The position numbers and the translations under genes were made by a program. The notes below the pieces were generated by a model. It searched no databases. It saw only the letters and a list, made by a program, of their open reading frames with translations, and was not told the origin of the DNA. Positions 33,593-46,375 of a stretch of 64,000 nt of DNA are shown piece by piece. Numbering within the stretch: position 1 is the first letter of the stretch; each line of letters begins with the position of its first letter. Origin of the DNA: Alphaproteobacteria bacterium (GTDB taxonomy: Bacteria; Pseudomonadota; Alphaproteobacteria; GCA-2731375); assembly GCA_965225945.1 (NCBI GenBank), contig CBDDBZ010000037.1, positions 352,001 to 416,000 of the forward strand, given 5' to 3'.

Positions 33593-33765
33593 TCGCCGAG
33601 ACGCTGGCATCCTGGCCGACGCTGCCCGCCAGCCGCCTCTACCAGATGGTGCGCGAACGCGGCTAGCTGACAGGCGGTCTTGTCGGGTAGCCGCGAGGAG
33701 CGCATGGCGGTCTGGAGACGGCGGTTGTTGCGCAGCACGATCTGGGCATTCAGCAACTGCTCAAT
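33593..33765. pseudogene. Fused IS21 scraps: about 73 bp of istA (+) and about 100 bp of an istB (-)
   Basis: [22 protein letters not shown] matches the istA near 42404-42476 with 1 mismatch; IEQLLNAQIVLRNNRRLQTAMRSSRLP is IstB-like. Confidence 0.7.
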
Positions 33766-35365: not shown

Positions 35366-36094
35366 TCAGGAGCGGTTCTTGAAGCGCCAGCTCTCGTTGC
35401 CGGTCTCGATGATCTCGCAATGATGGGTGAGACGGTCGAGCAGCGCGGTGGTCATCTTGGGGTCGCCGAAGACGGATGGCCATTCGCCGAAGGCGAGCTT
35501 GGTGGTGATGACGATAGAGGTGCGCTCGTAGAGCCGGCTCATGAGGTGGAAGAGCAGCTGCCCGCCGGCCTGGGCGAAGGGCAGGTAGCCGAGTTCGTCG
35601 AGGATGACGAAGTCGCGGCGTACGAGCTGGTCCGCGGTGCGGCCCTGGCGTCCGGCGCGGAGCTCGGCCTCGAGGTGGTTGACCAGGTCGACGACGTTGT
35701 AGCAGCGGCCCCGGGCGCCCTTGCGGATGCAGGAGCGCGCGATGGCGACGGCGAGATGGGTCTTGCCGGTGCCGGTGCCGCCGACCAGCACGATGTTGCG
35801 CTTGCCCTCCAGGAAGCCGCCGCCGGCGAGCTCCTGGATCAGGGGCTCGTTGACTGGCGAGGCGGCGAAGTCGAAGTCGGCCAGCTCCTTGGCCGTTGGC
35901 AACCTGGCGGACGCCATCTGGTACTTGATCGAGCGCGCCGTCTTGTCGGCGATCTCGACCTGCAGCAGCGTACCGATGATCTGCTGCACCGGATGACGAC
36001 GCTTGAGCCCGTCGGCAAGGATGTCGTCGTAGGCGGCGCGCATGCCCGCGAGCTTCAACGCCGTCATCATCGCCAGCACCTCATGACGCTCCAT
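35366..36094 (-). CDS. istB: IS21 helper ATPase IstB
   Basis: [14 protein letters not shown]. Confidence 0.95.
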
Positions 36095-37595
36095 GACCGG
36101 CCTCCCTCAGGCGATCGTAGCGCTGACAGTCGGCCACCGGCCGGTGGCGAAGCTGCAGGCCCTCGGGCGTCGGGATGGTCGCCGGCGGTGCCGGCTGGCA
36201 CTGCCGGGCGAGGATGTTGAGCACGACGTCGGCGCTGCAGGCGCCGCAGTCGAGCGCCTCGGCACAGGCCGCCTCGACCGCCTCCAGCCCGTCCTCCTGA
36301 ACCGCCGCGAGGATCCTCACGAACTGCCTGTCACCGTCGTCGCAACCCGTCAGCCGGGCCCGTATGCGGCCGAGCGCGCCGGGCAGTTGCCAGCCCTTGA
36401 AGGGCGCGCCGTTCCTCAGCGCACCAGGCTTCCGCGTCAGGATCGGCACGTAGTGCCACGGATCGTAGGCGATCTCGCCGCGCCCGAAGCTCCGGGGATG
36501 CTCGGCGACGGTCTCGCCGTCCTGGCGGATGACGATCCGATCGGCGTAGGCCCGCACGTCGACCGGCCGCCCGACGGCACGGGCGGCGACGCTGTAGTGG
36601 TTGTTGTCGAAGCGCACCAGACAGGTCTTGGACACCGCCACCTCGGTGGCGTGGAAGCCGTCGAAGGGGCCGCGATAGGCCATCAAGAAGGGCCGCTCCT
36701 CCTCGAACACCTGCCACACCGTCTTGCTCTCGATCGTCGGATGCGGCCGCTTCTTGGCGTCCTCGATACACCGATCCATCAGCCACTCGTTGATCTCGAC
36801 GTAGGAGCGGCCCCGCGGGATGGGCACGAACAGGCGGCCGCGGATGTCACCCACCTGCCTCTCGACCTGCCCCTTCTCCCAGCCCGCACCCGGAGTGCAC
36901 GCCACCGGCTCCACCAGATGGTGGGAGCACAGCTCCAGAAAGCGCCGGTTGTAGGCGCGCTCCTTGCCGACGAAGACCATGCTCACCGCCGTCTTCATGT
37001 TGTCGTAGATGCCCCGTCGGCAGACCCCGCCGAAGAAGTGGAAGGCCCGTTCGTGCGCCTCGAACACCATCTCCTGGCTCTCGCGCGGGAAGATCTGAAC
37101 CAGCTGCATGCGGCTGTAGCAGAGCCGCATGTGCGCCGCCTTCACCTTGGTCGTCACACCCGACAGGCGCGCGTACTCGTGGCTCCAGTCGAACTGGTAG
37201 GCCTCGCCGGGATCGAAGCTCAGCGGCACAAAACCCTGCGACGGCGACAACAGCCGCCACCGCCGACGCCAGGTCCTGGCGTAGCGGCGCACCGCGTCGT
37301 AGCCGCCGCCATAGCCCAGAGCCGCAAGGTCTTCATGAATCCGCAGCAGAGACAGCCGATCCCGGCGCGGCTTCTTCTCGTTGGCCTCCAGCTGGCGCTC
37401 GAGCTCATCCACCCACGGTCCAAGCTTCGGCATCGGCTGGATCTTGCGCGCGTAGCTGTACGAGGTCTCATCGCCCCGCACCACCTTGCGCACCGTGTTC
37501 TTCGAAACCCTCAAATCCCGGGCGATCTTCTTGATCGGAACGCCCCTCACCAGATGATCCCGACGGATCCGTGCGATCGTTTCCACTACCAGCAT
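36081..37595 (-). CDS. istA: IS21 transposase IstA
   Basis: [19 protein letters not shown]. Confidence 0.95.
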
Positions 37596-37711
37596 CTCCC
37601 CCACCTCGTCTGTCCAAACAACGAGGTGTGTTAAAAATCACAAAACCAGGGGGGTCAATTTTGGACGCCGATTACCCCACCAAGGGGGTCAATATTCCAC
37701 GCCGATCAACA

Positions 37712-38028: not shown

Positions 38029-39482
38029 CGGGGCGTTCCATCGTGGGCGGTGTGGGGCGGTGTCCGAAGGCTTCATCGGCGGCGATCCCGATTCGGCGCC
38101 GTTTGCAGTGTGTTGGGCGAATCATCGATGCCGGGCAACGGACCCGATTGTCAGCCAATGGAGCTTCCGAACAATACCTTGCGGTCGTGTTGCCGGGTGA
38201 GCCTGGCCTCGTAGGCTTCGTGCGTCTCGAAGCGTCCGAAATCTTCGATGGCCGAGGACAGGCTGGCACATTCCTGCAGGTGGCGGGCCACCTGCTCGTC
38301 GTGGATCGTCTGTCTCTGTCCGATCGCAAAGTCGATCATGGCTCTCAGGGCCAGGGTCGCGGCGAGCGGGTGTCTGGCCGCCAGGGCGTCGGCGGCCGGG
38401 ATCAGGATGTGGTCGAAGATGCCTTCGAGGTTTGACGCCTGTTCGATTACCAGCGCGGCGGCCCTGTCCAGGGCCGGCCAATCTATCAGGAAGGACAAGG
38501 CGCCGATCGGGCTCCGGGACTGCTGGACGTAGTCGAGGGCTTTTTCCTCGGCTTCCATGTCGTCGAAATCGGGAAGTTTCCTCAGATACGCCCGGAGATG
38601 GGGCGCCGACAGGGAACGCTCGAAACAGTTCCACCGGAACGCCTGGGCCTCATCGGACTGCCCGAGCGCTTCCAGTGCATCGATCCGGGCGTCCTCGCAC
38701 GCGAATCGGTGCCGGGTCGAATATCCGTCGTCATCGTGTTCGGCCGCATCCACAGCCTTCAGGGCCTCCTCGGCCCGTCCCGCCGCCAGGAGCCTGCGGG
38801 CAATCGCGGCGGCGACCGCGGGCTCCTTCCGGCCGCCTTCGTCAACCTGGTCGATGAAGGCATCGACATCGCCCTGGGCGTCGGCAATATCCTGCAGGGC
38901 CGAGCGGGCGGTCTGGGGCCGCAAGCGCTCCGCCGTCTCGGCTTCGACGTCTGTGCCCCGGTGGCGCCAGTGTATTTTCCGCCGGTGCGCTTCTGGCAGC
39001 TGTACGGTCGGCGTGTTCGAATATTCGGTCATCAGCTGCTTCAGACGCTCCAACCCTTCCTGTCCCAGGGCCGGCGTCAGCGCAGCGACGAGACCGTCGT
39101 ACTGGCTGTGGGCGTTCTGGGTCAGCGCCTCGAAGGCCCGCTCCGCCAGCTTGTGCGGATCGGGGCTGGCTGCGGAGGCAATGGCGCCCGGATCGGAGGC
39201 GCTGAAGGCGCCGGCGATTGTTTCGTCGGTATAGTGGAGGCGGTTCTGGATCGGGTTCGCCAGCCCCATGTACTGCCACATCAGGTCGAGCGCCTGGGCA
39301 GCATCCTCGATGGCGATCCGGTCGACGATGGTCCTGCGGCAGAGTTCCAGGTCGTCCACGAGATCCCGGTGTTAGCGGTGGTTCCAGGGTGCGCTTATAT
39401 GGTGCTCTTTTTGAGCGGTCGGTGGCGGTTGGCTGACGGGATGCTTTTGGGCTTGGCTGATTTTGTTTCGCGCTGTGGCTAT

Positions 39483-40373
39483 TCAGTCGAGGGGCCGGTC
39501 ATCGATCTGGAGCGGTTCGCCGGCGCGGTCGCGCATGAGCATGTCGTTCCAGTCCAGGCCGTCGAGGGCAGGGCGCAGGCGGACGACCCTGCTGTCGTTT
39601 CGGATGAGCCGTGCCGCGGCGTCATCGCCCTGGCGGGTGGCGTCGTAGGCGCAGAAGATCCGGCCGGGGTTCCAGGCCTCGATCCATTCGGGGAGGCTTG
39701 CGGTGGCGCCGCCGGTTGAGACCACGGCGCATCCCTTGCGCCCGGCCGGGACGAGGTGGAGGGAGCGGACCGACAGGGCGTCGATTGCGTTCTTGGCGAG
39801 GATGACGGAGTTCGGCCAGTCGGGTTCCCACGACATCCAGAAGCCGCCGCGCGCGGCGGCGCCGGTCGGCGCGAGGCGGCGTGGCGCCGCGGCAGGGACG
39901 ATCTCGGCGCCGAGAGCCTCGCCGGCCGCGTTTCGGCGGACGAACACGGCGTTGCCGTGGCGGTCGGCGTAGAGCAAGCCGAGGTCGCGGCACAGGGCGA
40001 CGAGCACATCCGCGAGGCCGCGCTGCTCGACGAGGTAGCTCTGGATGGCGGGCCAGTGGCGGTCCGGGCACGGCGGCTTCGGGTGGCGATCGGCCGGGAA
40101 CCGGTCACGGCACGGCAGTTCCGAGAAGAAGCCGAGGGCCTCGGGCACGGTGCACCGGCAGGCATGGATTACCAGGTCGATCGCTCCGCCCCCGCCGCGC
40201 AGATGTTCGTAGAACATAAAGCCGTTGATGCTGACGACGGATCCGGGACGCCTCCAGCGCGCGGCATCGGTGGGATCGCGGCGGTAGCCGAGGCGGCGGA
40301 CGACGTCTTCGAGGGGATAGCCTCGCAGGGCCTCGGCCCGCACCCGCCGGTCCCAGAGGCGGGGACCATCCAT
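39483..40373 (-). CDS. Primase-like protein (DUF3991/Toprim-type), catalytic acids degenerate
   Basis: GGGAIDLV N-terminal motif, YLVEQRGL, NAVF, NAIDALS, STGG, CAYDAT..GD, RLRP...DWND. Confidence 0.75.
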   Translation of the reverse strand: MDGPRLWDRRVRAEALRGYPLEDVVRRLGYRRDPTDAARWRRPGSVVSINGFMFYEHLRGGGGAIDLVIHACRCTVPEALGFFSELPCRDRFPADRHPKPPCPDRHWPAIQSYLVEQRGLADVLVALCRDLGLLYADRHGNAVFVRRNAAGEALGAEIVPAAAPRRLAPTGAAARGGFWMSWEPDWPNSVILAKNAIDALSVRSLHLVPAGRKGCAVVSTGGATASLPEWIEAWNPGRIFCAYDATRQGDDAAARLIRNDSRVVRLRPALDGLDWNDMLMRDRAGEPLQIDDRPLD

Positions 40374-40375
40374 GG

Positions 40376-41164
40376 CTACGCCGGCGGCGGTTCCCCGCGG
40401 TCCTGCGCGCCGGCCTTGCCGGCTCGCCGCCGGCGGCGCTCGGCGCTGCGCTGCTTCTGGCGTTCCTCGGCCTCCTTGCGGCGCCAGGACTCGGCGTCGA
40501 TGGCGATGATCTCGGCGTTGTGGACGAGGCGGTCGACCAGGGCGACGAGGCAGGCGGCGTTGGGGAAGGCCTCACCCCACTCGGCGAAGGGCCGGTTGGT
40601 GGTGATTATGGTGGAGTTCTGCTGGCTGCGGCTGGAGACGATGTTGAACAGCAGATCGGCATGGCGGTTGCTGTAGGACAGGTATCCGACCTCGTCGATC
40701 ACCAGCAGGTGCTGGCGGGCGTAGAAGCGCAGCCTGCGCTGAAGCAGGGTGTCGCTGTCGAGGGCGGCGAGCTCGCCGAGCATGCTGGCCGCGGTGGCGA
40801 AGCGCACGGTGTGGCCCTCGAGGACGGCGCGGTGGGCGATATTGGCGGCGATGGTCGACTTGCCGACGCCGTTTGGGCCGACCAGGACGACGTTGGCGGC
40901 CTCGTTGAGGAACTCGAGGCTCATGAGATCCTCGACGGCCATGCGGTCGCAGCGGCGCGGCCATGCCCAGTCGAAGTCGGCGAGCGGCTTGAACTGTCCG
41001 AGGCGGGCGTCGCCGAGGCGGCGCTTGAGGCTGCGGCTTCGCCGTTCCTCCTCTTCCCAGGCGACCAGCGCAGCGGGCCAGTCATGCCCGGCGACCTCGC
41101 CCCAGTGGGCGGCGAGGCCGTGCAGGCCGAGCGCCCGGGCACGGCCCATGAGGGTATCGTTCAT
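40376..41164 (-). CDS. istB: IS21 helper ATPase IstB
   Basis: [27 protein letters not shown]. Confidence 0.93.
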
Positions 41165-42666
41165 TGCTCGCTGTCCTCCTCGGGTTCGCCGGCCAGCCCG
41201 TCGTATCCGACGAGGTCGTGATCGCGGACAGTGATGTCGCGCACTCTCGGATCGCCGGGCAGTTCGACGGGGATGGGCGGGGGTTGGTGCCGCAGCTCGC
41301 GCCGCCGGGTCAGGCTCAGGCGCACGGCGTTGGGATGGGGAACGTCCCGCTTCAGGGCCTCGTCGATGGCCGCCTCGAGCTCGGCGGCGCCGTAGGCGTC
41401 GAGGAGGCGCAACAGGGCGGCGACGGTGGCGCCTATATAGCCGCCGCGCTGGGCGGCCTCGGCGAGCAGGCGCTCGCTGTTGGGCGCGGCCTGGACCAGC
41501 CGGTCCTGGCCGCGAAGGCGGCGGGCATGGCTCTTGCGCCTGACCAGCTCGGCGATGTGCTCGGGGTTCTCGATGCGGGCCGCCTTGTCGAAGCTGCGCG
41601 GATGGCTGGCGATGACGTCCACACCGTCGAGGATGCGCACCTCGTCGAGCGTCGCGACCACGACGAGGGTGCGCCGCACATGGGTGTGCGGCACGCTGTA
41701 ATCGTTGAGATCGAAGCGGGCGTAGGGGGTCTTGCCGATGGCGACCTCGACCCGGTCGTGGTCGGGGAAGGGATCGCCGGGCAGCGCGATGAGAGAGCCG
41801 CGTTCCCGCTCGAAGGCCTCGCGCACGGTGATCGAGCGGTCTTCGGGCCAGGGGCGGTCGGCGGCGATGCCGTGGCACCAGGCCAGGGCCTGGGCGTTGA
41901 GATCGTCGATATCGCGCCACCGGCGGGCGGCGAAGAAGCTGGTCCGGACATAGCGAATCGCCCGCTCCACGCGCCCCTTCTCGTTGCCGCGCGCGACCGC
42001 GACGGGCTTGGGCAGGAAGTGGTAGTGGCCGGCGAGGTCGAGGATCCGGGGATTGAACCGGATGGCGGCGCCGCGGCGCTCCAGCACGACGCTCTTCAGG
42101 TTGTCGTACCAGAGCTCGCGGGGCACGCCCTGCCACGCCTCGAAGGCTTCGACATGGCCGCGCAGGAAGTTGCTCATCCCGGCGTCGAGGTAGAAGCGCA
42201 GGAAGATCCGCCGCGAGTAGCTGAGAACCATCACGAAGCCCATCAGGCGGCGCTCCGCGCGGCCGATCGTCACCTTGCCGAAGTGTCCCCAGTCGACCTG
42301 GGCCTGCTCGCCGGGAAGGGTCTTGAGGCGCAGATAGGCCTCGGCCACGGGCCTGGGCCTGAAGTGGCTGAGCAGATGACGGAAGTGGTCGCCGCCGCCC
42401 GGATAGCCGCGTTCGCGCACCATCTGGTAGAGCCGGCTGGCGGGCAGCGTCGGCCAGGATGCCAGCGTCTCGGCGATGAACGGCACGTATGGATCGATCA
42501 TCGACGGCCTGGGCGACCTCGCGTCCCGGGGCTCGCCGGCCGCGGTGAGGAGGCGCTCGACGGTGTAGCGATGCACGCCGAGCTGGCGTGTGATCGTGCC
42601 GACCGTCCACTTCTCGACGTGATACAGGCGCAGGATCTCCGCGCGGGTCTCCTTGTCGATGGTCAT
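41161..42666 (-). CDS. istA: IS21 transposase IstA
   Basis: [23 protein letters not shown]. Confidence 0.95.
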
Positions 42667-43103
42667 CTCACCCCCTTTCCCGTCGGGCGCAGCCCCGGAT
42701 AGACCGCCTGCCCGCAGAACCGGCCGCAGCGATCGCAGCGGAAGACCCTGGCGGGCCGCTCGTGCCCGAAGGGCCGTGTTCCGGGACGCCCTGCCGGCGT
42801 CCGCACCACAACAGGACGCCGCCGCGCGGCGGTCAAAGGGTGATGCGTCACTTCCTGCCCGCGGCGCCGATTCACCGGCGTCCGGCGCCGCCGGCGTTCG
42901 CGATAGCGCCGCTGGCGCTCAGCATGCTTGTGACGGCCCCGCCGGCTGTTCTGGTAGCGCTGCCCGGCATGGCGCTGCGATCGCCGGCGCACCCGATCGC
43001 TGCAGCTCCGTGAACAGTAGATGTTGCCGTGGTCGCAGTGCCGGCAGAGAACCACCTGTTGATGGCACGAGGCGCAGTTGAACAGGCGGGCGGTGTTCTT
43101 CAT
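42663..43103 (-). CDS. Cys-rich basic accessory protein, translationally coupled to istA
   Basis: CxxC-x6-CxxC-x6-CxxxC, Arg-rich helix, C-terminal CxxC; ATGA overlap. Confidence 0.75.
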
Positions 43104-44332
43104 CGCGCAGCCGATGAGAACGGGGTGGACCCACGCCCAAACCCGCACGATACTGCGCATATGGGTCGTGCCTTGCATGGCTCGGGGGGTGCGGTGCCGG
43201 TCGTTGCCAGCAAGCAAACGGGGCCGGCGCCGCATCGTTCTCAGCGGCCCGAGTGTACTCCCGCGGCTCCCCTTGTCAGGTCCGCGGAACCGCCGCCGCC
43301 AGCCAGCCAAAACAGGAATCGAGACGCCCGCCCGCGGTGGATAAGCAGCCCGCCGCCGCCAGACTCTTGGCGGTCGCCGCGGCGGGCTACTTACCCACCG
43401 CTGCGCCGAGCCAACTCCCGCCTGCAAACCACGCAGCTACAGCGCCACGATGCCCGATGTCGCTGAAATCACCATCTAAGCGCGGTTTTTCATCGCCACC
43501 GACACCCGGCGCCTTCGCGAATCGATGACCGCGCGAGACCGGCGGATAGTCGCCATCCGATGCCGCACCTCTCTGGCGAGCTTGGCCGTGCCCTGCGCAC
43601 CGGCAAGCTCGAGTCGAAGCATCCGCCGAGCCGCGGGTCTTCCCTTGCTGACTTCGATCAGCAGGTCGGCGAGGCGCTCTGCCCCGAGAGCCTTCAGGTT
43701 CCTGGCGTTGAGAGTTTTCTTCGATGTCATATCGCAGCCGGGTCGCATTGCAGTCTGGGTGCGCAGGACCTTGATCCGTCGCTCCATATCGCGCAATAGC
43801 TGGGATGGGGGCGGGCTGGCCCGGAGACGCTCGGGCCAGCTGACCCCACTAAGGGACGCAGCCGCAATCCCGGGGCCGGCCAGGAAGCCGGGATAAACGG
43901 GGACGGAAGGATACAAGGGGGTTAAACAAGAGCGATTTCGATTCGATGACGGATGCCCTAGGCTCTGGCGCTCGACAGTCCGGAAAATTGAGCCACACCA
44001 AGGACTTGATATCTGGGCGGATACATGGCGCGACACGAGATTGCAAATGCGGCAAGGAGGTGATGTACCGCAACATCTTGATGTGGTTGATCAGGTAGGC
44101 GGCCTGAGATTCTGTTTGAGCATGTGATCTTGGTCCGGTGTGTTGCGTGAGTTTCCCGCTGCGGCACCCCCGAAGCAACGATTGATGCCACGTTGGGCTG
44201 TCCGAGCGCGCCAAAATCACTCGTTGAACGCATTCTCAAACGGTCTCTGAGAAACAGACGGAATACACCTTAAGTCAGCCGCCAAGCAGCTCGAATAGGC
44301 GAGGTCAACTCAGCACAGGAGCGCGTCACCAA

Positions 44333-46375
44333 ATGAAACTCTTCCTCCAGCAGCTCGAAGCGCATCTGTGGGGCGCCGCGAACATCCTGCGCGGCAAGAC
44401 AGCGGGACAGGACTACAAGAACTACATATTGTCGCTGATGTTCTACAAGCGGCTCTGCGATCAGTGGGAGTGGGAGGCGGACGACGCCATCACCGAGCAG
44501 GAACGGCAGCAGGGCCGACCATTCACCGAGACGCAGAAGGCGATCTTCCGCAAGCGCGGCGAGCATCGATTTGCCATCCCGGACGGCTCGCGGTGGGGAG
44601 ATGTCAAGGCAGTCTCGGTGAACATCGGCGAGGCCCTGACACGCGCGATGCGGGCCGTGGCCGACGCCAACAACGAGCTGCGGGGTGTGTTCACGGTTGA
44701 CTGGAACCAGCCGGCACCCGACGGGTCGGGCAAGCCGCTGATCGCCAATGAAGTCGTCCATGCGCTGGTCCAGCACTTTGATGAGCACGATCTGTCGAAC
44801 CGTAGCGTGCCGGCCGATGTGCTGGGCCGGGCCTACGAGTACCTCATCAAGAAGTTTGCCGACGACGCCGGCGCGAAGGCGGGCGAGTTCTTTACGCCCC
44901 CAGAGGTCGTGGACACCCTGGTGCGCATCCTGGAGCCGGGTCCCGGCGATAGCATCTACGACCCGACCGCGGGCTCCGGCGGGATGCTCGTGCACGCCGC
45001 CGACTACCTCCGCGAACACGGGCATCACGCGACCCATGCGCGCTACTTTGCGCAGGAAATGAACTGGGGCAACGCCGCCATCGGCAAGATCAACTCCGTG
45101 CTCCACGGCCTCGAAGCCGACATCCGGGCCGGCAATAGCACCATCACCGACCCGCTGTTTCTCGAAGGTGGCGAGGTGCGCAGGTTCTCTCTGGTGCTCG
45201 CCAATTTTCCGTTCTCGGACGACTACTGGTGGCTGAAGCCGGAGCAGCATACCGACGACAAGACCAGGAAGGCCCGGCTCAAGAAGGAGATTTTCGGCAA
45301 TGAGGGCTACAAGGACCCGTTCGGTCGTTTCGGCCGCGGCACCGGCTTCCAGGCGCCGCCGGCCGGCTACGGGGACTACGCGTTCATACTCCACATCCTC
45401 GCTTCGCTCTCCGACGACGGGCGGGCCGGCATCGTCTGCCCGCAGGGCGTGCTCTTCCGCGGCCAGCCGGAAGTCGAGGAAGAGACAGGCGACTTCGACG
45501 CCAGGGGGAAGCCCAAGGTGAGGCGGCGCAAGGCCGACGACGAGCATCTCATCCGCCGGGCGCTGCTCGAGTCCCGGCTGATCGACGCCGTCATCTCGCT
45601 GCCGCTCAACGTCTTCTACGGCGCAGGCGTGCCCGCGTGCCTGTTGATCCTGCGCAAGCAGCGCCCCGTGGAGCGCCGGGACCGGGTTCTGCTGATCTAT
45701 GCCGCCCGGCACTACCGCGAGCTCTCCGCCCAGAACGAGCTGCGCCCCCAGGACGTGATGCGGATGCTCGTGCACTACCACTCCTACGGTGATGCGTCGA
45801 AGGCGCCCGGCCTCGTGGAAGAGCACAGCGAGAGGGTTCACTGCGAGATCGACCGACGGGAGGCGGACGAGGTCGGCCGGCTCGAGGCCGAATATCAGCC
45901 TCAAGCCGACAGGCTGGCCGCGCTCAACAACGCGCTTCAGGAGGCCCGCGAAAAGCAGCGCGCATCCGCGACGAAGCGCGACAAGGCGAAAGCGGCGCCA
46001 GCGTTGACAAAGCTCCAGAAGCAACGCGACAAGATCGCGGCGAAGGTCGCGGAGCGCGACGAGCGCATCGCCGAGGCGCGTCGCAACGCCGAGGACGACC
46101 GTGCGGACATCAGCGCGGTGGGCGAGGAGCTGGTCGCCCTCTATGCCGATCCCGACGAGCTGATCAAGCACGCCCGCGTCGTCGACATGGATGAGGTCGA
46201 GGAGAACGAGTTCAACCTCAACGTGCCTCGGTACGTGGATACCTTCGAGCCGGAGCCGCGGATGGATGTCGATGAAGTGCTCAGGGCACTCGTTAATGCT
46301 GAGAAGAAGGCGGAGGACGCCGAAGCGACTCTCCTGAATCTCTTGCGGGATGTCGGTTATGCCGTCGGTAAGTAG
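44333..46375 (+). CDS. hsdM: Type I R-M methyltransferase subunit
   Basis: LWGAANILRG, GEFFTP, YDPTAGSGG, motif IV NFPF, FNLNVPRYV. Confidence 0.94.
   Translation: MKLFLQQLEAHLWGAANILRGKTAGQDYKNYILSLMFYKRLCDQWEWEADDAITEQERQQGRPFTETQKAIFRKRGEHRFAIPDGSRWGDVKAVSVNIGEALTRAMRAVADANNELRGVFTVDWNQPAPDGSGKPLIANEVVHALVQHFDEHDLSNRSVPADVLGRAYEYLIKKFADDAGAKAGEFFTPPEVVDTLVRILEPGPGDSIYDPTAGSGGMLVHAADYLREHGHHATHARYFAQEMNWGNAAIGKINSVLHGLEADIRAGNSTITDPLFLEGGEVRRFSLVLANFPFSDDYWWLKPEQHTDDKTRKARLKKEIFGNEGYKDPFGRFGRGTGFQAPPAGYGDYAFILHILASLSDDGRAGIVCPQGVLFRGQPEVEEETGDFDARGKPKVRRRKADDEHLIRRALLESRLIDAVISLPLNVFYGAGVPACLLILRKQRPVERRDRVLLIYAARHYRELSAQNELRPQDVMRMLVHYHSYGDASKAPGLVEEHSERVHCEIDRREADEVGRLEAEYQPQADRLAALNNALQEAREKQRASATKRDKAKAAPALTKLQKQRDKIAAKVAERDERIAEARRNAEDDRADISAVGEELVALYADPDELIKHARVVDMDEVEENEFNLNVPRYVDTFEPEPRMDVDEVLRALVNAEKKAEDAEATLLNLLRDVGYAVGK

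Follow-up and report, generated by a model that had tools for sequence, protein, structure and literature searches.

The locus described here raises the question of what a primase-like gene is doing inside an insertion sequence. It lies in a 64-kb stretch of an alphaproteobacterial genome (contig CBDDBZ010000037.1, positions 352,001 to 416,000), which is called the window; coordinates are positions within it. A 4135-bp insertion sequence of the IS21 family spans window 39370–43504 and carries four genes, all on the minus strand. In the order of reading these are a gene for a small cysteine-rich (Cys-rich) protein, istA, istB and the primase-like gene. The primase-like gene is read here as an integral accessory gene of the element. 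The best explanation overall, held with a confidence only slightly better than even, is an active four-gene IS21 element whose relatives use their primases to prime DNA synthesis and whose own lineage keeps the protein as a non-catalytic accessory subunit.

The four-gene IS21 element and its copies

The element, its genes and the host gene that it interrupts are arranged as follows.

38151–39369, minus strand: 3' part of the host gene (Pfam DUF6880 profile positions 78–469)
39365–39369, no strand: left copy of the target-site duplication, CCCGG
39370–39404, no strand: terminal inverted repeat at the primase-gene end, beginning TGT, from ungapped comparison of the ends
39483–40373, minus strand: primase-like gene, 296 amino acids (aa); DUF3991, 36.5 bits, cut-off 24.5
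40376–41164, minus strand: istB, AAA+ helper ATPase, 262 aa; NF038214, 204.3 bits, cut-off 200; PF01695, 1.8e-53
41161–42666, minus strand: istA, DDE transposase, 501 aa; NCBIfam NF033546, 249.1 bits, cut-off 160
42663–43103, minus strand: Cys-rich basic protein, 146 aa from a conserved Met; no family
43470–43504, no strand: terminal inverted repeat at the Cys-gene end, ending in ACA, from ungapped comparison of the ends
43505–43509, no strand: right copy of the target-site duplication, CCCGG
43505–44036, minus strand: 5' part of the host gene (Pfam DUF6880 profile positions 2–74)

The outermost letters of the element are TGTTAGCGG... at 39370 and ...CCACCGACA at 43504. The terminal inverted repeats are imperfect and have the TG...CA form that the IS21 family requires. 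An inner block of 14 nt, GCGCTTAnATGGTG, is common to both. When the unit and one CCCGG are excised in silico, the host gene is restored as a single 599-codon open frame. The interrupted gene is adjoined by a 680-aa open reading frame (ORF) on the plus strand (window 44333–46375, ORF listing).

The Cys-rich/istA and istA/istB junctions are both ATGA, and a 2-bp spacer separates istB from the primase-like gene. The four genes apparently form one operon. IstA contains the Pfam domains HTH_23, rve and Mu-transpos_C_2, corresponding to an N-terminal helix-turn-helix, an rve core and a Mu-type C-terminal barrel. No TnsA-, TnsD-, TnsE- or TniQ-like protein is present among the proteins of the element in Pfam and NCBIfam scans.

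Canonical IS21 elements have two genes in approximately 2–2.5 kb, and IS21 target duplications range from 4 to 8 bp. Like IS21 and IS5376, the element passes the IstA and IstB models and has an ATGA overlap between istA and istB, TG...CA ends and 5–7-bp duplications. Unlike them, it has four genes in 4.1 kb: its inverted repeats also enclose a Cys-rich gene before istA and a DnaG-fold gene after istB. A conserved 5' stem-loop and leader are a further difference. From its sequence it is an IS21-family variant with two accessory genes, and it is filed as such because every defining feature that was tested fits except gene number and size.

The source genome (6.27 Mb, 39 contigs) contains 19 full-length copies of the element that are 99.2–100% identical, two further copies broken up by other small repeats, and a few fragments. 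Direct duplications of 5–7 bp, differing in sequence, flank 15 of the 19 copies at the same ends; the four copies that have none are the kind that recombination between copies would yield. The inverted repeat at the primase-gene end is present in 18 of the 19. Intact reading frames are found in 18 copies for the primase-like gene, istB and the Cys-rich gene (146 aa) and in 17 for istA. An in-frame 6-bp insertion within the primase-like gene occurs in 12 copies. Contigs from public sequencing runs end exactly at 39370 and 43504, and in one DNA run (X1) depth is approximately 90 inside the element and approximately 4 in its flanks. The element is found in runs of eight studies, some of them labelled sponge metagenome. 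Among 40 related genomes, matches occur in only one, a member of the same genus, as fragments only, and the element therefore appears to have arrived by transfer and expanded recently. It has been recently active in this genome.

These results fully bear out the structure that the original prediction had read from the window alone: a discrete 4135-bp unit with TGT..ACA ends and a CCCGG duplication, a tight four-gene operon, and a primase-like gene that moved with the element. A 73-bp scrap of istA at window 33593–33665 had been taken as a hint of other copies; it is 98.6% identical to istA, and the other copies exist. The proposal of a candidate new element class was overstated, as nothing in IstA, IstB, the ends or the duplications departs from an ordinary IS21.

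Several observations concern the copies and their surroundings. Two copies are interrupted in the primase-like gene, one at C27:62270–62601 by a 332-bp unit with 167 BLAST matches in the genome that resembles a miniature inverted-repeat transposable element, and one at C39:307800–308063 by a 264-bp piece, parts of which turn up again at 53 places. The genome as a whole is heavily repeat-laden. The copies at C37:75401–79541 and C18:73087–77221 have the same flanks on both sides, reflecting either a segmental duplication or a locus assembled twice. Fragments of a second primase-like gene (C38:323–1150 and C30:9313–10140) have 66–67% protein identity and have lost the first ~34 residues; no istA or istB was detected alongside them, and they are probably what is left of a related element. 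In this genome the primase-like gene is mainly confined to the 19 full and two interrupted copies. An ordinary two-gene IS21 lies 1.8 kb from the element (istA at window 36081–37604, minus strand; istB at approximately 35378–35974). Its IstA is approximately 30–31% identical, and none of the ~45 istA/istB pairs found genome-wide by tblastn is accompanied by a primase-like gene.

The primase-like protein and its relatives

The primase-like protein has an N-terminal domain resembling a zinc-binding domain (ZBD), a DUF3991 domain and a Toprim domain. Against Pfam Toprim_2 it scores 22.0 bits, just under the cut-off of 22.1, and its relatives pass both DUF3991 and Toprim_2. No solved PDB chain is detectable from its sequence. 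In its AlphaFold2 (AF2) model (predicted local distance difference test, pLDDT, 79.5; predicted template-modelling score, pTM, 0.76), the protein has the DnaG-primase fold, in agreement with the name first given to the gene. The best Foldseek match is to the ZBD and RNA-polymerase domains of Aquifex DnaG (E 1.7e-5), followed by the Escherichia coli DnaG core, T7 gp4 and Twinkle. DnaG primases fill the first 11 ranks (E 1.7e-5 to 3.2e-4). Template-modelling (TM) scores are low (0.31–0.44), which is expected when multi-domain proteins are compared.

The model matches DnaG, T7 gp4 and Twinkle over the ZBD region, the RNA-polymerase subdomain and Toprim. Unlike DnaG, the protein is only 296 aa long and has no helicase-binding C-terminal domain. 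Structurally, its N-terminal domain corresponds to the ZBD region of Aquifex DnaG, but it contains none of the conserved Cys or Cys-His zinc ligands (in DnaG, the CHC2 pattern). The protein also lacks the Glu of Toprim and the second Asp in the DxD motif, both required for DnaG activity. In the window copy the two motifs read AKNAIDALS, with Lys at the Glu position, and YDAT, with DxD changed to DxT. All 16 distinct proteins of the lineage lack the same two residues; their Glu position is occupied by K, G, A or D and their DxD motif is D-x-T throughout. The altered acids had been noted from the window and read as a sign that this copy may be non-catalytic or decaying. The first part of that suggestion stands; the losses are fixed across the lineage and thus are not decay of the window copy. 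Because they are lineage-wide, catalytic priming by the window's protein is unlikely, and the protein is probably non-catalytic. The earlier idea that it primes copy-out synthesis is disfavoured for the same reason.

The residues are retained elsewhere in the family. In the ParB-IstAB-type elements, Glu and DxD are both kept in 8 of 8 primases. In the convergent type, Glu is kept in 4 of 4 and DxD in 3 of 4 (L043 reads DYxD). In the TniAB-type elements, both are present in most.

Within the lineage, mean identity is 0.70 for Toprim, 0.70–0.74 for the other two domains and 0.39 for the linker. The ratio of nonsynonymous to synonymous substitution rates (dN/dS), calculated for eight pairs, is 0.32–0.66 for the primase-like gene, 0.14–0.37 for the Cys-rich gene, 0.17–0.41 for istA and 0.10–0.42 for istB. 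As judged by this ratio, which stays under 1 for each of the eight pairs, the primase-like gene is under purifying selection.

The genomic setting of the family was examined at 84 loci, namely the best 80 of 322 relatives found with a primase profile in a species-genome collection and 4 from the first scan. Their architectures are as follows, in gene order.

23 loci: Cys-rich gene, istA, istB, primase-like gene, same order and strand as in the window; 10 other assemblies, mostly alphaproteobacterial metagenome-assembled genomes (MAGs)
5 loci: partial or decayed four-gene versions
9 loci: ParB-like gene, divergent IstA, IstB, primase; Acidobacteriota, Verrucomicrobiota, Planctomycetota and a deltaproteobacterial MAG
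23 loci and 2 partial loci: DUF6431-type Cys ORF, rve/Mu-type transposase, AAA_22 ATPase, primase
5 loci: rve transposase, AAA_22 ATPase, AAA_25 ATPase with a winged-helix tail (RepA/DnaB-like), primase
4 loci: primase convergent with istB and istA
8 loci: cyanobacterial, no transposase detected
5 loci: on contigs too short to classify

The four-gene order of the window, which the original prediction expected to recur, is thus present at 23 of the 84 loci. The primases of these 23 loci are 59–68% identical to the window's protein, and the gene is full-length in every one of these complete elements. One other genome contains at least 14 copies of a four-gene element with 5-bp duplications.

The primase-like gene derives from a DnaG-fold family of small proteins whose genes are the last gene in several unrelated transposons with a DDE transposase and an AAA+ ATPase. 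The DUF6431-type elements are multicopy, 4.05–4.34 kb long, with TGTTG...CAACA ends and 4–5-bp duplications. Examples with intact Toprim residues are L056:2857–7161, L047:2798–7134 and L066:2743–7063, from Bryobacterales, Paracoccaceae and other MAGs. Transposons with a Mu/Tn552/Tn5053-type transposase and an AAA_22 (TniB/MuB-like) ATPase share with the window's element a DDE transposase followed by an AAA+ regulator. At the 23 loci they also share a homologous DUF3991/Toprim gene at the end and a small Cys-containing DUF6431 ORF in front. They differ in that their transposase and ATPase belong to other families, the primase mostly keeps E and DxD, and no homology is detected between the ORF in front and the window's Cys-rich protein. 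The names Tn552 and Tn5053 are applied to them as a presumed likeness and not as a class assignment.

Among the AAA_25-bearing units, L037:2333–6591 and L062:2178–6858 contain a helicase-like/primase pair within a transposon, and one genome has three copies. In L094:795–4811, L077:514–5033 and seven further loci, a ParB/KorB-like gene precedes istA and a primase with an intact Toprim domain follows istB. Some ParB-type elements have five genes, with a small Cys-rich ORF at the very front. In the convergent type, the primase gene of L038:5814–9334 (3.5 kb) lies inside IS21-type ends with two repeated 25-nt motifs; the istA frame of this locus, as delimited, contained a stop.

The wider primase family comprises 3416 library representatives at E ≤ 1e-3. 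Plasmid relatives occur in 128 records; among the 25 listed, the majority bear a MobV relaxase annotation. MobV relaxase-primase fusions of cyanobacterial and Paracoccus plasmids are the closest annotated homologues (27–32% identity over approximately 90% of the length). In these the domain is fused to a plasmid relaxase, whereas in the window's element it is free-standing as the last gene of a transposon. Three apparent IstB-primase fusions (P0006, P0246 and P0256) were rejected, as the sequences are read-throughs of frameshifted copies, and no IstA-primase fusion was found among 20 longer matches. A complex prediction for IstB with the primase-like protein scored 0.00 and is uninformative either way.

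In the primase tree, the proteins of the window's lineage form one clade with support of 100/100 on a long stem (0.7), and this clade is sister to the convergent type (98/92). The elements with the closest IstA proteins (54–69% identical) have the Cys-rich gene directly before istA and istB and no primase gene after them. Such three-gene elements, found in Paraburkholderia, Cupriavidus, Massilia and many MAGs, share the Cys-rich family and the gene order with the window's element. They differ from it in the absence of a primase-like gene after istB, and their Cys-rich ORF is mostly unannotated. None of 12 distinct three-gene elements with sufficient downstream sequence has a primase-like gene. 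In the IstA tree (FastTree, rooted on the window's other IS21, clades given without support values), all 12 primase-bearing elements form one clade nested among the 12 primase-less ones. This branching pattern points to a single acquisition of the primase-like gene within the Cys-rich three-gene IS21 subgroup.

The original prediction had made its reading of the primase-like gene depend on whether related elements lack it or have random cargo in its place. The nearest relatives do lack it. The position is nevertheless not one for random cargo, because primase genes are terminal on other transposon backbones as well.

The Cys-rich gene and the 5' region

By its distribution, the Cys-rich gene is the older partner, as a large IS21 subgroup has it in front of istA throughout. 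The protein has more than 500 relatives. Eight Cys are invariant in 33 of them and a ninth (C130) is nearly so. The Cys-rich protein belongs to no family in Pfam, NCBIfam, PHROG or PADLOC, and the protein atlas returns only clusters named 'hypothetical protein'. Its model (pLDDT 73.6) contains a small, zinc-ribbon-like N-terminal beta unit, a helical hairpin at residues 32–74 and a C-terminal CxxCxxxC knuckle. No significant fold match to this model is found in the PDB, where the best hit is YacG (E 1.3). Compared by hhalign, the Cys-rich protein has no significant match to the Cys ORF found in a ParB-type element (E 0.034). The Cys ORF is left uncalled in two annotated plasmid records of three-gene IS21 elements.

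Three features lie between the Cys-rich gene and the end of the element.

43104–43250, minus strand: conserved non-coding leader of 147 nt, from the promoter-like site to the Cys-rich gene
43252–43279, minus strand: predicted sigma-70-like promoter, CTGACA, 16 nt, TACACT; hexamers conserved among relatives
43334–43401, minus strand: conserved stem of 23 bp and conserved loop of 23 nt, farther upstream than the promoter-like site, from an inverted-repeat search

The sigma-70-like site is the only one in 39300–43600, and 0.3 are expected from shuffles. In the leader, mean pairwise nucleotide identity across 10 elements is 0.845, compared with 0.76–0.89 for the four genes. A small upstream ORF in the leader was considered and rejected, as the indels are not multiples of three. 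RNAalifold predicts 43 pairs in the leader, one of them covarying, and the single-sequence fold has a z of -1.04; the leader is an unproven candidate for a structured RNA. An Rfam scan returned nothing relevant.

The stem-loop is more clearly patterned. In nine elements, 97.1% of cells pair and 8 of the 23 pairs have compensatory changes. This covariation is reached in 0 of 500 shuffles, and slid controls give at most one. G-U pairs fall on the sense strand.

What the primase-like gene may contribute

In the favoured explanation, IstA would cleave the 3' ends at the terminal CA and join them to the target held by IstB, and 5–7-bp duplications would result. This ordinary IS21 reaction is attributed to IstA and IstB from their families. 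The resemblance of IstA to MuA and TnsB is emphasised in published work (PMC10122671). Because transposases of the IstA, MuA and TnsB types cut only the 3' ends, the product would be a branched or copied-out intermediate that needs DNA synthesis. In relatives with an intact Toprim domain, the primase may prime DNA synthesis on this intermediate. The DnaG-fold gene is the last gene in five architectures, once beside a RepA/DnaB-like ATPase, which fits a role in the synthesis step. Self-primed replicative transposition in these relatives is plausible but unproven.

In the window's lineage, no primer would be made, and the protein may be a DNA-binding or adaptor subunit that helps or regulates a step after strand transfer. 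Since sister elements have no primase-like gene, the gene would modulate the reaction rather than enable it. For the Cys-rich protein, the likeliest role is to bind nucleic acid in the 5' region of the element (stem-loop, leader), and it may regulate expression or the use of the end. An analogy, from general knowledge of the system, is Tn7 (TnsABC with TnsD/E), in which extra element-encoded proteins modify a MuA/TnsB-type reaction.

Several observations weigh against an active element with a working accessory subunit. The absence of a primase from the nearest relatives implies that the basic IS21 reaction can proceed without the gene. Its dN/dS is the highest of the four genes, and its intact reading frames are weak evidence by themselves because GC-rich DNA keeps long ORFs open by chance. 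Long hairpins upstream of the Cys-rich gene also occur in some primase-less relatives, and the stem-loop therefore belongs with the Cys-rich/IstA module and is not attributable to the primase-like protein. A comparison by hhalign of the Cys-rich protein with the DUF6431-type ORFs of TniAB-type elements is non-significant (E 0.2). Abutted-end, circle or tandem junctions are absent from the assembly and from the contigs of four runs, although contigs drop rare forms. The orientation of the copies relative to local GC skew is positive in 8 of 19 cases, which is not a bias, and as the skew is weak the comparison is non-conclusive. Two RNA-library runs contain the element, in one case as a 4171-nt contig that spans it, and DNA carry-over could account for them.

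A broader form of the favoured explanation extends it beyond IS21. A widespread guild of transposons, with IS21-type and Mu/Tn552-type backbones, would carry its own terminal DnaG-type primase and prime its own replication, partly free of the host restart primosome and with a RepA/DnaB-like helicase in one branch. The window's lineage would then be a derived branch in which a pseudo-enzyme subunit works with a zinc-finger protein and a stem-loop. This extension is tentative and is considered rather doubtful.

The alternative that best withstands the evidence makes the primase-like gene a passenger whose function was lost once it had been captured and which is slowly decaying, with no part in transposition. 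The fixed loss of Glu and the second Asp, the variable residue at the Glu position, the elevated dN/dS, the long stem branch of the primase clade, the sister elements without the gene and the frames held open by high GC are all what such a passenger would show. A decaying gene would not be expected to have dN/dS below 1 in every pair, or conservation that tracks domain boundaries with a Toprim domain no less conserved than the others. The gene is also full-length in all 23 complete four-gene loci, the 6-bp polymorphism among the 19 copies keeps the frame, the 2-bp junction with istB is maintained, and in at least four other backbones a related gene likewise comes last. A decaying passenger is considered unlikely.

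It is improbable that the protein has retained enzymatic activity by rebuilding its active site, as either a primase or a Toprim nuclease that cuts the 5' strand as TnsA does in Tn7. The DnaG fold is kept and the acidic positions D198, D244 and the D...D of a DWND block remain. Cyanobacterial plasmid homologues also have Lys at the Glu position, with a Glu four residues later. A re-engineered site would not be expected to vary among K, G, A and D within one lineage, however, and all 16 proteins have Thr in place of the second DxD Asp. The fold matches are to primases and not to nucleases.

A service to the carrier replicon or the host, such as plasmid establishment after transfer or a decoy against replicons or phages, is about equally improbable. 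It would suit a family whose nearest plasmid relatives (27–32% identical) are domains of MobV-family relaxases and in which many of the best 150 library representatives form the C-terminal domain of a larger protein (560–2400 aa). In this genome, however, the gene lies inside the inverted repeats, occurs mainly within copies of the element and is tightly joined to istB. There is no relaxase or origin-of-transfer gene nearby, and no PADLOC defence model matches the window's proteins, the primase-like and Cys-rich proteins included.

That the 4.1-kb unit is a composite, an ordinary IS21 beside unrelated genes or a nested insertion, might be suspected from the size and gene number of canonical IS21 and from the two-gene copies in the same genome, but this reading has a negligible probability and is refuted by the two ends and four genes shared by 19 copies, the contigs of independent runs that break at 39370 and 43504, the duplications around the entire unit and the restoration of the host gene on its excision.

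No description of IS21- or TniAB-type transposons with a primase gene, or of the Cys-rich family, was found in the open-access literature searched. Current annotation misses the Cys-rich gene, as a large IS21 subgroup carries it as an unannotated third gene. In the source genome, approximately 20 copies that disrupt genes matter for the interpretation of an insertion-sequence-laden genome that is present in sponge-metagenome runs. For transposons of the Mu, IS21 and Tn7 kinds, a detailed picture of how strand transfer gives way to DNA synthesis exists only in the case of phage Mu, which relies on host restart proteins. Primases encoded by transposons, with a helicase in one branch, would offer a direct experimental handle on this step.

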